Positions 19,226-37,551 of a stretch of DNA of 45,347 nt are shown here, piece after piece. Position numbers and translations under genes: made by a program. Below the pieces are notes generated by a model. It was given only the letters and a program-made list of their open reading frames with translations, searched no databases and was not told the origin of the DNA. Within the stretch, counting starts at the first letter, position 1. Every line of letters begins with the position of its first letter. The stretch is from Candidatus Firestoneibacteriota bacterium (GTDB taxonomy: Bacteria > Oederibacteriota > D2-FULL-39-29 > JBBTED01). The stretch spans positions 1 to 45,347 of the forward strand of contig JBBTED010000033.1 of assembly GCA_038042445.1 (NCBI GenBank). Reading direction: 5' to 3'.

Positions 19226-20046
19226 TGTTTTTTTAACCCAAGGTCAATAGCAACTCCATCTACGATTGGAGCATCTATTGTTGCTTTTTTTTCAAGAAAT
19301 CCTTCCAATAATGCATTATCACATATTGCATTTATAAGACGTGGTATTCCTTTGGAGTGTATAAAAACAGATTGCACTGCAGAATCAACAAATACTTCTT
19401 TTTCAGTTCCTGCAACTTTGATACGATGAAGTATATATCCTTTTGTAGATGCTTCATCAAGTGGTTTCAATGTAAATTTTAGTCCAATACGTGAAACAAG
19501 TGGTGGATCAAGTGCCATATATTTTTCTAATTCAGGTGGCCCAAATAAAATTATATTCAGTAATTTATGACTTGACGCTTCAACATTAAGAAGTCCACGC
19601 AATTCTTCATAAATGTCCTGAGTTTGAAGCATATGTGCTTCGTCAATAAGTATTATCGCTTTTTTGCCTGCTTCATCAATTTCAATTAATTTTCTACATA
19701 TCTGAGATATTAAAGTTGTTTTGTCATCAGCAGGACTTTCAATTCCAATCTGAACCCCAATTTTTTTAAGAAGCCATCCCGCAGATATTTCATGGTGAAT
19801 TATAATTAGAAGTGCAGCTTCATATTTATTTTCGTCAATTTGAAGTTGGTCAAGAAGTTTTCGACTTAAAAATGTTTTACCTAACCCTATATCACCTATA
19901 ACTACTGTTAACCCTTTTGCCGAATCAATTGCGTGCTGCATCCTGATTAATGCCCCCATATGCTGTTCACTTTCAAAAAAGAAACGCGGATCAGGCGTAA
20001 TTGCAAAAGGCTGTTCCTTCAACCCATAAAATGCTTCATAATTCAT
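19222..20046 (-). CDS. ExeA-like AAA+ ATPase (paralog 1)
   Basis: YGLKEQPFAITPDP start, Walker A GDIGLGKT, Walker B LIDEAH and GIPRLIN. Start taken at MNYEAF. Confidence 0.88.
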   Translation of the reverse strand: MNYEAFYGLKEQPFAITPDPRFFFESEQHMGALIRMQHAIDSAKGLTVVIGDIGLGKTFLSRKLLDQLQIDENKYEAALLIIIHHEISAGWLLKKIGVQIGIESPADDKTTLISQICRKLIEIDEAGKKAIILIDEAHMLQTQDIYEELRGLLNVEASSHKLLNIILFGPPELEKYMALDPPLVSRIGLKFTLKPLDEASTKGYILHRIKVAGTEKEVFVDSAVQSVFIHSKGIPRLINAICDNALLEGFLEKKATIDAPIVDGVAIDLGLKKQ

Positions 20047-20054
20047 AATTATGT

Positions 20055-20083
20055 ATTGTAACAATTTTGCACACCTTTTGCAA
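20055..20083 (-). promoter_or_regulatory. Sigma70 promoter, probably leaderless, of the ExeA-like/purB run
   Basis: TTGCAA-17 nt-TACAAT with an extended TGn. The ATG lies 8 nt after the -10 and has no SD sequence. Confidence 0.6.
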
Positions 20084-20102
20084 TAGAGAAAATTCAGAAT
20101 GT

Positions 20103-20450
20103 GGAAATGGGAAGGTAGATGGTATCCCCCTACTGAAGTGTTTTGGGAATATATGGTTTAAGGAATTAAAAGATAAAATAAAAGAAATATTAAGAAATAA
20201 CGGATTAAATGGAATTAAAAAGCAGGTATCAAAGCCTTACACATGTCAAGAAAATGAGTTTAAACGCAAGTTAGAAGGTAAATTTGAAAAAGAAAACTGG
20301 AAGAATGTAGATTATGAAGCAACAAACATTTCAAACGTATATGATTCACAATATTGGAAATTCAAAAGAGTAAAAGAATATTACAAAGAAATTGAAGATA
20401 TATATTTAGATAAAGCAATAAAAGAAGCAAAAACGATTATGAACAGTTAA
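20103..20450 (+). other. Start-less open frame (about 115 codons) inside the IS left end; passenger or fragment
   Basis: Open from the IR to TAA at 20450 with protein-like composition. The TTG used by the ORF track (20067) is outside the element, and the only in-frame ATG is 3 codons before the stop. Confidence 0.5.
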
Positions 20451-21618
20451 AAAATAAATGGAACACATAAGCTAAATCTCCTAAAATGATTGTGTCAACA
20501 AAACCAAAAAAGGAGGTGCTGTATGTGTCCCATACCATATTATACAATGATACGAAAAAGTAAAGAGAAAATATACTTCAGATTAAAATTAGTTATGTAT
20601 GCTGAAAAACATGGAGTAAAGCCTTGTGCCAGAGATTTTAATACTACACCTAAAACCGTAAGGAAATGGGTAAAAAGATACAAGTTTCAAGGATATAACG
20701 GTTTAGAAGAGAAATCCAAAGCTCCACATAATATACCGCATAAGATTAAACCTGAATTAGAAAAAGAAATAATCAAGTATAAGAAAAGTTTGCCTAGTTG
20801 GGGAGCATTAAGGCTAAAACGAGATTTTGACTTGCCTTGTAGTGAAAAAGTTATATCAAGAGTATATAAAAAAAATAACTTAACAAAAATTAAAAGAAAA
20901 AACCATCAAACAAAAAATGATTTAAGGGAAATGAAACGAGCATGGAAATTGTTCAGCCATAATCAGATAGATACAAAAGATTTAATAGATATACCTGAGT
21001 ATTTTATACAAATGAGGATGTTTGATTTGCCTAAAGTTCAATATACTTACAGAGAAGTTGTATCTGGATTACAATTCACTGGTTTTGCTTGTGAAAGATC
21101 ACTTACTAACTCAAAAATATTTGTTCAGAAAATAAAAGAACATCTTGTGAAGTGTAATGTTCATTTAAAGAATTCGATATGGCAAACTGATAATGGGAGC
21201 GAATTTATTGGGAGTTGGAACGCAAAGAATAAAAGTATATTTACAAAAGCAATAGAAGATAATACACCCAATTGTATACATCAAACTATTCCACCGGGAG
21301 CACACAGATGGCAAGCTGATGTTGAAACTGTTCATCGTTTGATAGAAGATGAATTTTATGAAGTTGAAAACTTTACATCTAAAAAAGATTTTTCACAGAA
21401 AATTACTGCATACCAATATTTCTTTAATGCAGTTAGACCAAATTCTTACAAAGGTGGCAAAACTCCTCTTGAGATTATTCAAGAAAGAGAACCAACGATT
21501 GATCCTAAAATTGTATTACTACCACCTATTTCCCTTGATGATGAATTTGAAAAATTATATACTAAATTAGATCCTGAAAAAATTGCAACAGGGGGTTACC
21601 ATCTACCCTCTTATCCCT
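20103..21618 (+). mobile_element. Insertion sequence, IS481-like DDE element with long direct repeats
   Basis: Imperfect terminal IRs: GGTAGATGGTATCCCCCT on the left versus AGGGGGTTACCATCTACC on the right. Direct repeat GAAAATTCAGAATGTGG at 20088-20104 and 21619-21635. The left end is uncertain by 2 bp. Confidence 0.85.
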
Positions 21619-21620
21619 GA
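20523..21620 (+). CDS. Transposase (HTH + integrase core, IS481-like)
   Basis: AGGAGG RBS at 20511-20516; HTH (TPKTVRKWVKRY); putative DDE triad in QIDTK, QTDNGSEF and DVETVHR. Confidence 0.9.
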   Translation: MCPIPYYTMIRKSKEKIYFRLKLVMYAEKHGVKPCARDFNTTPKTVRKWVKRYKFQGYNGLEEKSKAPHNIPHKIKPELEKEIIKYKKSLPSWGALRLKRDFDLPCSEKVISRVYKKNNLTKIKRKNHQTKNDLREMKRAWKLFSHNQIDTKDLIDIPEYFIQMRMFDLPKVQYTYREVVSGLQFTGFACERSLTNSKIFVQKIKEHLVKCNVHLKNSIWQTDNGSEFIGSWNAKNKSIFTKAIEDNTPNCIHQTIPPGAHRWQADVETVHRLIEDEFYEVENFTSKKDFSQKITAYQYFFNAVRPNSYKGGKTPLEIIQEREPTIDPKIVLLPPISLDDEFEKLYTKLDPEKIATGGYHLPSYP

Positions 21621-21689
21621 AAATTCAGAATGTGGGAAATTTCCCAAAAACAGGAATCCAGAGAAATATATAAATGAATAATAAAAATA

Positions 21690-21753
21690 TTGTAGCGGTT
21701 GCCGTAAGGCAACAATATTATATTGTAAAGTCAGCTTACGCTGACCGCTACAA
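21690..21753. repeat. GTAG-type REP doublet (family B)
   Basis: GTAGCG-GTTGCC-GTAA-GGCAAC and the inverted GTAGCG-GTCAGC-GTAA-GCTGAC. Confidence 0.75.
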
Positions 21754-21766
21754 ATACAAACTAATA

Positions 21767-36628: not shown

Positions 36629-37551
36629 AGAAATGAAATTCTTCTCTTCCTTTCTTGTGAAGCTTCATCTGGTTTTTTTGTTTTTTGTTCAGGAGCAACT
36701 TCATCAATTTTATCTTTTACTTCTTGAGTAGATTGATTTAATCCTAAATCAACACTAACCTGTTCAATAATTTTTACATCTATCACTTCTTTATTTTGCA
36801 TAAATCCTTCCAGAAGTGCATTTTCACAGATTCCATTAATTAAACGTGGAATACCACGTGAAAACTTATGCATTATAGGAAAAACATCATCTGTAAAAAT
36901 ATCTTTTTCACAACAAGCGATTTTTAAACGATGCTTCACGTAACCTGCAATTGAGTCAACTGTAAAAGTCTGCAAAGTAAGCTTTAAACCAATTCGAGAT
37001 ACTAAAGGAGGATCTAAAGCCATAAATTTATCAAGTTCTGGAGGACCAAATAATGCAATATTTAAAAGCTTACGACTTTCCACTTCAACATTTAAAAGAC
37101 CGCGTAATTCTTCATAAATTCCCCGGTTCTGAAACATATGTGCTTCATCTACAAGGACAATAGCTTTTTTTCCCTGTGAATCTATTTCAGTGATTTTTCT
37201 GCATATTTGTGAAATTAATCCGGTTTTATCTTCTACAGGTGTAGATACACCTAATGATTTTGCAATTGATTTCAACATCCATGTAGCAGTTATTTCATGA
37301 TGTATCACAATAAATAAAGACGCTTCATACTTATCTTCTTCATCTGTGAGCATATCCAATAGTTTTCTGCTCAAAAATGTTTTACCAACACCAATATCTC
37401 CAATAATTACAGCAAGACCCTTTGAACCATCAACTGCATCCTTAACTTTTGCAAGTGCAGTCATATGCTGTTCATCAGGATAAAAAAACTTTGGGTCAGG
37501 AGTAATTGTAAATGGTCTTTCTTTTATTCCATAAAACTTTTCATATCCCAT
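36625..37551 (-). CDS. ExeA-like AAA+ ATPase (paralog 2)
   Basis: GDIGVGKT, LVDEAH and GIPRLIN motifs; colinear with paralog 1 plus a charged tail. Confidence 0.88.
   Translation of the reverse strand: MGYEKFYGIKERPFTITPDPKFFYPDEQHMTALAKVKDAVDGSKGLAVIIGDIGVGKTFLSRKLLDMLTDEEDKYEASLFIVIHHEITATWMLKSIAKSLGVSTPVEDKTGLISQICRKITEIDSQGKKAIVLVDEAHMFQNRGIYEELRGLLNVEVESRKLLNIALFGPPELDKFMALDPPLVSRIGLKLTLQTFTVDSIAGYVKHRLKIACCEKDIFTDDVFPIMHKFSRGIPRLINGICENALLEGFMQNKEVIDVKIIEQVSVDLGLNQSTQEVKDKIDEVAPEQKTKKPDEASQERKRRISFL

Follow-up and report, generated by a model that had tools for sequence, protein, structure and literature searches.

A probable new variant of IS481-like insertion sequence, with a stop-less transposase gene and a start-less left-end frame, apparently inserted upstream of a host promoter

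Contig JBBTED010000033.1 of a Candidatus Firestoneibacteriota bacterium (assembly GCA_038042445.1), analysed here as a stretch of 45,347 nucleotides that we refer to as the window, carries at positions 20088–21635 a 1.5-kb insertion sequence (IS), found by sequence inspection to lie between two copies of an exact 17-bp direct repeat, GAAAATTCAGAATGTGG. We propose that this element is one copy of a large and divergent branch of the IS481 superfamily and that it combines 1) a position upstream of a host promoter; 2) a transposase gene that has no stop codon; and 3) a partner frame at its left end that has no start codon. We put the probability of this explanation as a whole at roughly 75%. The missing stop appears to be a family-wide and ancestral trait, seen across about 60 related insertions, and the left-end frame reads as a conserved coding frame with no start, ribosome-binding site (RBS) or promoter of its own, spanning about 35 codons in most relatives. 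With these three unusual and linked traits the element is a new variant among IS481-like elements. A preliminary description of the window had suggested that the two open frames could fuse across abutted element ends, an interpretation that, taken overall, is partly supported.

The direct repeat is the target duplication, and the DNA to the left of it belongs to the host, because a 248-bp contig of run X6, which comes from a slightly divergent strain, joins position 20087 straight to 21619. This joint omits 1531 bases, equal to the element and one copy of the repeat, and the contig retains the host promoter; the same run also contains the occupied left junction. A second joint among the run contigs (20177 to 21231, side 21) was discarded as probably spurious. 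An empty site was also sought in related genomes, the nearest of which are only of the same class, and none was found, the matches ending at the gene start. Judged by homology with a relative (L123) that has a 16-bp duplication, the element most likely spans 20103–21618 with G20103 as its first base, in which case the duplication would be 15 bp plus two chance bases; left ends from 20103 to 20105 all fit. Duplications measure 15–17 bp in the window and eight relatives.

The inverted repeats of the element are imperfect and 28 bp long, and the left one is conserved in relatives and in a solo end on contig C81. Besides its one full copy, the source genome holds this solo left end (C81:55117–55164, L002) and a solo right end on contig C70 (C70:20590–20657, L003), both of the same IS type and each about 50–70 bp. 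At two other loci, the left flank of L064 and the right flank of L105 carry an identical 15 nt, ATTCCGGTAGTGTCT, and these are probably two sides of one insertion split during assembly; such splits account for many loci that seem to lack a duplication.

The features of the element are collected in Table 1. The transposase frame is open from 20490 and likely starts at ATG 20523. As the preliminary description had claimed, it runs across the whole right inverted repeat, ending in GGYHLPSYP, and its TGA is composed of the element’s final base, T21618, and the GA of the direct repeat. An alternative genetic code was considered and rejected, as TGA closes 16 of the 37 long frames in the window and is thus an ordinary stop. 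In relatives the frame closes with a conserved motif, G[GW]Y[DH][VL][IV]P.P, that is encoded by the right repeat, and a T follows the last conserved codon at 62 of the 64 right ends bearing this motif (62 unique junctions). Beyond this terminal T the flanks of family members are mutually unrelated.

Since the frame ends on the element’s last base, T, the protein either stops immediately, where the flank begins with AA, AG or GA, or gains a flank-encoded tail, and we infer that T is the sole terminal base that would allow the flank to complete a stop. Immediate stops occur at 21 of the 62 unique right junctions, with the remaining tails running from 1 to more than 400 codons; at the 60 junctions that have a background estimate, 19 immediate stops were observed against 12.2 expected (P about 0.025), which is a modest excess. 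The C-terminus also changes with the target, a behaviour raised in the preliminary description, since tails differ among near-identical copies (99.8–100%) in one genome, as between L009 and L010 and among L011, L012 and L013. At three loci in metagenome and metagenome-assembled genome (MAG) contigs (L028, L106 and L110), 3′ remnants of the transposase (residues about 258–365) enter, in frame, a downstream membrane-protein open reading frame (ORF) of more than 400 codons, and these are the longest flank-encoded tails found.

At the opposite end of the element, a frame that we call ORF1 is open from 20067 in the flank, across the left inverted repeat, to the TAA at 20448–20450. The earlier claim that about 115 codons are open here with no usable ATG or RBS is upheld, as ATG, GTG and TTG are all missing from the frame ahead of codon 113, and by our own estimate it is unlikely that 115 codons would stay open by chance in DNA of 28% G+C. 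ORF1 can be divided into residues 7–30, which form a family-wide module, and residues 70–95, which form a clade-specific core reading YEPTNI..DS.YWRWRRVKEY in relatives and beginning YEATNI in the window copy. ORF1 has five close relatives, and a search of 1.84 billion proteins returned 56 representatives at E ≤ 1e-3, all of 57–154 amino acids; the N-termini of many of them begin 1–15 residues ahead of the codons encoded by the left repeat. ORF1 was also sought in metagenome contigs and none was found. Modelled alone, it shows helices at residues 16–32 and 83–114 and a loose middle (predicted local distance difference test score, pLDDT, 73.6; predicted template modelling score, pTM, 0.30), and structural relatives were sought with nothing usable in the ESM Atlas and nothing by Foldseek with this model.

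It had been suggested that the left frame might stay open in relatives under selection and keep a fixed phase to the repeat, and both hold. ORF1 spans 114–115 codons in all four elements for which DNA is available, none of which has an ATG before codon 113; in three of them (L123, L124 and L125, from genomes of the same class as the source) it has 114 codons counted from the element’s first codon. The ratio of nonsynonymous to synonymous substitution rates (dN/dS) between L124 and L125 is 0.23, indicating purifying selection, compared to 0.06 for the transposase, and the insertions and deletions among ORF1 relatives are of whole codons in DNA of 28–40% G+C. Codons begin with the first G that follows the terminal T, both in the four ORF1 elements and in 51 shorter ones. 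These three relatives have a TTG at codon 28–30, which is absent from the window ORF1, and the only near-start conserved in all four is a CTG within the left repeat.

The shorter elements provide a wider view of the same frame. Among 51 unique left ends without ORF1 it is open for a median of 35 codons, compared to 13 and 20 in the other two frames, with a stop at codons 33–37 in most elements, and its consensus is G[KR]RN.H[GR][IT]PL..LLIFGR.G..E[VL]R.W...WLKR. Beyond the repeat, the module frame has a ratio of nonsynonymous to synonymous differences (pN/pS) of 0.50, versus 0.91 and 1.20 for the remaining frames; its mismatches at the three codon positions are 0.39, 0.29 and 0.48. An earlier and narrower profile (A1), run on 111 loci, was strong in the window only; the wider ORF1 profile revealed the shared N-terminal module and detects the module frame at the left end of 59 other loci (61 hits in total). 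The profile and frame data on relatives therefore indicate that the left-end module is family-wide and that the YEPTNI domain is a clade-specific addition. The trait is not bound to the 115-residue ORF, most relatives having only the module of about 35 codons. At one locus (L039:343–1020) about 680 bp of other, repeat-rich DNA replaces ORF1 between the left repeat and the transposase gene, a case suggesting that the left region of the family tolerates varied inserts.

The transposase gene has a putative promoter of its own, and because this lies downstream of the ORF1 stop it does not serve ORF1. The arrangement TGGACA-17/18-TAAAAT is conserved 3′ of the ORF1 stop among ORF1-bearing elements, and the string TGGA(C)ACA ... 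CTCCTAAAAT is invariant in four of four; the putative promoter is absent from the promoter-scan list for the window. That the left frame has no start anywhere in a family as diverged as this one argues for a design in which translation comes in from outside. Synthesis of the left-end product would depend on what adjoins the left end. At somewhat under even odds, it would be made as a separate small protein from starts supplied by the flank or from near-cognate starts such as the conserved CTG of the left repeat. Alternatively, and a little less probably, it would be read through from the transposase frame across a junction of right end to left end; the remaining odds fall to another route or to no product. 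A start provided by the complement of the −35 box (ATGTCAA) is in frame, yet it is present in only 7 of 53 flanks and was rejected.

A possible role for the product is indicated by structure prediction. A complex model of ORF1 with the transposase, built using our own alignments, scored 0.73, compared to 0.00 for the best of three controls; 116 of 157 solved complexes attain this mark, as do 2 of 215 mismatched pairs. The model runs agree in at least 43% of contacts, with a partner pLDDT of at least 43. The confident contacts are between ORF1 residues 7–30, which is the shared module, and transposase residues 277–332. We infer that the left-end product may act as a partner of the transposase, docking onto the helices at the C-terminal end of its catalytic domain.

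The third trait concerns the insertion site. In the window the host promoter reads, on the minus strand, TTGCAA (20083–20078), a 17-nt spacer and TACAAT (20060–20055), with a TG preceding the −10 box. Across the left flanks of loci L004–L111, on which the promoter counts are based, 29 of 54 unique flanks carry TTGACA (at most one mismatch; 18 exact) starting 20–21 nt from the left repeat in the outward direction, compared to at most two occurrences at any other left-flank position and at most three in 56 right flanks. TAnnnT follows 17 nt beyond the hexamer in 21 of the 41 anchored flanks and 18 nt beyond it in 5, other spacers accounting for 1–3 each. In all nine verified cases the duplication begins 4 nt from the hexamer, and the unrelated flanks of near-identical copies all show the −35/−10 layout. 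Like ISAba32, therefore, the element keeps a fixed distance and orientation to a host-owned sequence, and the empty site retains this landmark. The solo left end on C81, read by eye, adjoins a promoter directed leftward, TTGATA-17-TACTAT, which is accompanied by an RBS and an ATG.

The family thus appears to insert 4 nt upstream of the −35 hexamer of putative host sigma-70 promoters in a single orientation, its left end toward the promoter and its transposase gene pointing away from it. Insertion upstream of a promoter would act as a safe harbour. As to how such targeting arises, the transposase may read the DNA, it may read bound RNA polymerase, or it may be that only intergenic insertions survive. 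Our literature searches found no description of IS insertion measured from a −35 box.

Assignment to the IS481 superfamily is based on the transposase. Its best NCBIfam match is the IS481 model NF033577 (E 5.1e-34, profile positions 2–283 of 284), the Pfam domains HTH_28 and HTH_32 score above their cut-offs, and rve_3 matches weakly (4.9e-4). Columns of D, D and E are conserved in 27 transposase sequences and presumably form the catalytic triad. The single-ORF architecture of IS481, an N-terminal HTH followed by a DDE (rve) core, is present, and duplications of 15–17 bp agree with the IS481 range (2–15 bp, with a class of about 15 bp). The 5′-TGT terminal repeats of IS481 are absent, the left end being T followed by GGA or GGG and the right end CCCT, the reverse complement of AGGG. 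Other families fit poorly: the IS1202/ISNCY model NF033594 (ISNCY_2) gives 20.6 bits against a cut-off of 250 and the IS3 model NF033516 gives 55 bits against 160. Nor are there paired overlapping ORFs of the IS3 type, which a −1 frameshift fuses, as the HTH and DDE regions share one ORF and ORF1 lies two stops and 72 nt away; the two are in the same frame in the window, interrupted by TAA 20448 and TGA 20487, and in different frames in L125. Annotated IS481 transposases on plasmids are only 23–27% identical to that of the window. Relatives with about 50% identity are common in MAGs and metagenomes, with 28 loci found in genome contigs and 87 in metagenome contigs, of which 80 were kept. Their hosts include Acidobacteriota, Brocadiaceae/Scalinduaceae and Ignavibacteria, and L009–L013 and L020–L023 are copies from Acidobacteriota.

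Several points weigh against this explanation. The transposase misses the IS481 cut-off, with 118.1 bits against 224 for NF033577. The orientation test is weak, since an outward gene follows at 27 of 34 flanks on the left and still at 21 of 36 on the right, and the −10 box might be enriched because intergenic insertions survive rather than because it is recognised. The sense and antisense pN/pS statistics at the left end rest on 273 non-independent pairs, and the antisense frame that shares the wobble position is itself fairly constrained (pN/pS 0.64). In-frame starts in the flank show no excess in the ORF frame (24 of 53, versus 24 of 53 and 19 of 53 in the other frames). The complex is a model, and the fold of the partner within it is uncertain (pLDDT below 50). 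As to the strand, we prefer the sense frame because it is homologous to ORF1 and because no minus-strand ORF of at least 40 amino acids lies over ORF1; antisense coding over the left end was set aside given that homology.

One possibility is that the two open frames are the halves of a junction-dependent, circularly permuted gene, so that in a circle or tandem dimer the stop-less transposase frame would run into the start-less left frame. The product, made in the joined state only, would be a longer transposase to which the left-end module is added, together with the ORF1 domain in the clade of the window copy, and integration would split the gene again; the joined form would be a different and complete enzyme, perhaps the one that finds promoters and integrates. 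We regard this as a tentative proposal with less than an even chance of being correct. In its favour, both open ends fall exactly at the element termini across the family and in fixed phase, with the right-end T at codon position 1, and ORF1 has no promoter, RBS or conserved start, though a one-base change would make a start. The lack of enrichment of flank starts in the ORF1 frame and the predicted docking of the module near the transposase C-terminus point the same way, and related copy-out-paste-in families are described as forming circles with a junction-specific promoter (10.1101/2022.12.17.520857).

The geometry of the junction argues against such a gene. Fusion in frame requires 3n+1 nt between the terminal Ts, that is 3n+2 between T21618 and G20103, and with the usual duplication of 15 nt the CCC and GGG codons would stand 17 nt apart, out of frame; in the window copy, moreover, the flank-derived spacer begins with TGA. 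For ISKpn21 the circle spacer is reported to equal the length of the direct repeat (10.1101/2022.12.17.520857). The sole natural right-to-left joint that we found, at L015, separates CCCT from GGG by 16 nt and is closed by a TAA, and no such joint was found in five genomes holding 1–4 copies each. About a third of copies stop at once, none of the five closest transposases is fused, each ending either in the motif or in a short tail from the flank, and no fused protein was found among longer ORF1 relatives of 271–2000 amino acids, although this last is weak evidence. Junction patterns sought in viral contigs gave 52 matches, about the number expected by chance on our own expectation, and none encodes the transposase. 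At L015:720–790 two slightly different copies of a related IS stand head to tail, the right flank of the second lacking the spacer repeat, and the arrangement may represent a tandem dimer or the outcome of repeated insertion next to a single promoter.

It is improbable, in our judgement, that the left frame is untranslated and that it is conserved because the DNA or RNA near the left repeat has a role of its own, for instance in binding the transposase, as a promoter, or as a leader or antisense RNA. Such a role would fit the pN/pS of about 1 that every frame shows inside the left repeat (nt 1–30), the absence of start signals from the left frame and some constraint in the antisense frame. Beyond the repeat, however, the order of mismatches by codon position (3>1>2) and the low pN/pS are specific to one frame, and most elements place a stop at the same few codons; the ORF1 clade keeps its full length open in DNA of 28–40% G+C, with selection on the protein and whole-codon indels, and the complex model puts the peptide on the transposase with null controls. 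Lastly, the idea that ORF1 is what remains, at the 3′ end, of some unrelated host gene that was captured or interrupted might be suggested by its missing start codon and its openness into the left flank, but we give this a very small probability and treat a captured fragment as ruled out by the empty site (where left flank joins right flank directly and ORF1 is absent), by its position inside the inverted repeats, accompanying the transposase in four of four elements from different genomes, and by relatives that are all small, many beginning at left-repeat codons. ORF1 itself has no match in Pfam or NCBIfam and only one, at E 0.037, by sequence in the PDB.

Returning to the explanation that we prefer, an IS481-like element with open-ended genes beside a promoter, its traits can be compared with known systems. 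It resembles IS481 in its single transposase with an N-terminal HTH and DDE core, its length (about 1.26–1.5 kb) and its duplication of about 15 bp. Duplications of about 15–16 bp are recorded for an IS481 sub-lineage that includes ISMac4, ISA0963-1 and the eukaryotic IS481EU (PMC10045372). It differs in that its family ends in TGG...CCT rather than TGT...ACA, in the absence of a transposase stop inside the element, in the coding frame at the left end and in promoter targeting; the last three were not found described for IS481 in our literature searches. In the IS1202 family, the ISAba32 subgroup targets XerCD recombination sites, the ISTde1 subgroup has 15–17-bp direct repeats and circles are reported (10.1101/2022.12.17.520857). 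ISAba32 and the window element both insert beside a fixed landmark and in a single orientation, the left end lying against the landmark across one copy of the direct repeat, and the IS1202 family more generally shares discrete duplication classes that include 15–17 bp and a variable C-terminus. Unlike IS1202, the landmark here is a promoter −35/−10 and not a Xer site, and the ends are not TGT. Copies of IS1239 in Streptococcus pyogenes are likewise reported to gain variable transposase C-termini from the downstream flank (PMC13630536). There the cause is a lineage-specific 1-bp deletion with relaxed selection, unlike the window family, where the open end appears to be the ancestral state, with a conserved terminal T and C-terminal motif.

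Were the frames to fuse across joined ends, the element would resemble the copy-out-paste-in elements in that expression would depend on abutted ends and be switched off again after integration. The known cases rebuild a promoter at the junction, whereas here a coding frame would be rebuilt. Such junction promoters, formed when ends abut, occur in IS911, IS2, IS30 and IS21, and in IS110/IS1111 a promoter for the guide RNA is formed in this way. In the integration-dependent immunity of mycobacteriophages, the analogy drawn in the preliminary description, the 3′ end of a gene changes between the integrated and excised state. That system uses a site-specific integrase with attP inside the repressor gene, in contrast to a DDE transposon whose C-terminus is new at every target.

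Table 1. Coordinates in the window of the element, its genes and its insertion landmark.
Feature	Position	Strand	Remarks
Host sigma-70-type promoter of the leftward gene (19222–20046/20064)	20055..20083	-	From promoter scan; apparent insertion landmark
Target duplication, left copy	20088..20104	.	15 bp certain (20088–20102); 20103–20104 possibly element-owned; 4 nt from the −35 hexamer
Left inverted repeat GGAAATGGGAAGGTAGATGGTATCCCCC	20103..20130	+	Complementary to the right end; equals ORF1 codons 1–9
Left-end ORF (ORF1)	20103..20450	+	115 codons and TAA; the element provides it with no start, RBS or promoter
Putative transposase promoter	20458..20486	+	TGGAAC, 17 nt, TAAAAT; downstream of the ORF1 stop; candidate hexamers
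Shine-Dalgarno AGGAGG of the transposase gene	20511..20516	+	6 nt ahead of the ATG; conserved in relatives
Transposase gene	20523..21620	+	365 codons; N-terminal HTH and DDE/rve core; no stop codon inside the element
Right inverted repeat	21591..21618	+	Codes for the conserved C-terminal GGYHLPSYP; terminates in the family-wide CCCT
Target duplication, right copy	21619..21635	.	Donates GA of the transposase stop codon; exact repeat and empty site

Some further features surround the element. The ATG of the neighbouring leftward gene (20046–20044, minus strand; window 20044–20060) stands just 8 nt past the −10 hexamer, for which reason its mRNA may be leaderless or nearly so. A paralogue of the gene to the left of the IS (19400–20104 region), with 67% DNA identity, is found at 36973–37545. 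To the right of the IS, at a distance of 70 nt, lies a double-hairpin repeat (21690–21755; GTAGCGGTTGCCGTAAGGCAAC ... GTCAGCTTACGCTGAC ... CGCTAC), which has six copies in the genome at no more than three mismatches and a contig depth of 133–250 in run X2, compared to about 9 around it, and which looks like a repetitive extragenic palindromic (REP) or miniature inverted-repeat transposable element (MITE)-like element.

What these observations mean for the family can be considered trait by trait. With respect to promoter targeting, this is a widespread bacterial IS family that apparently gauges its insertion point from the host −35 box. Some eukaryotic retroelements integrate in a promoter-directed fashion and, if true, targeting by this family would be a bacterial counterpart, and would also offer a ready probe of promoter or RNA polymerase recognition by a DDE transposase. 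For annotation, gene callers assign arbitrary tails to these transposases and arbitrary starts to the left ORF. With respect to the open-ended genes, the C-terminus of the transposase would be rewritten at each hop, beside a conserved partner module that seems to have no expression signals of its own, and the open gene ends make a junction-dependent coding frame directly testable.

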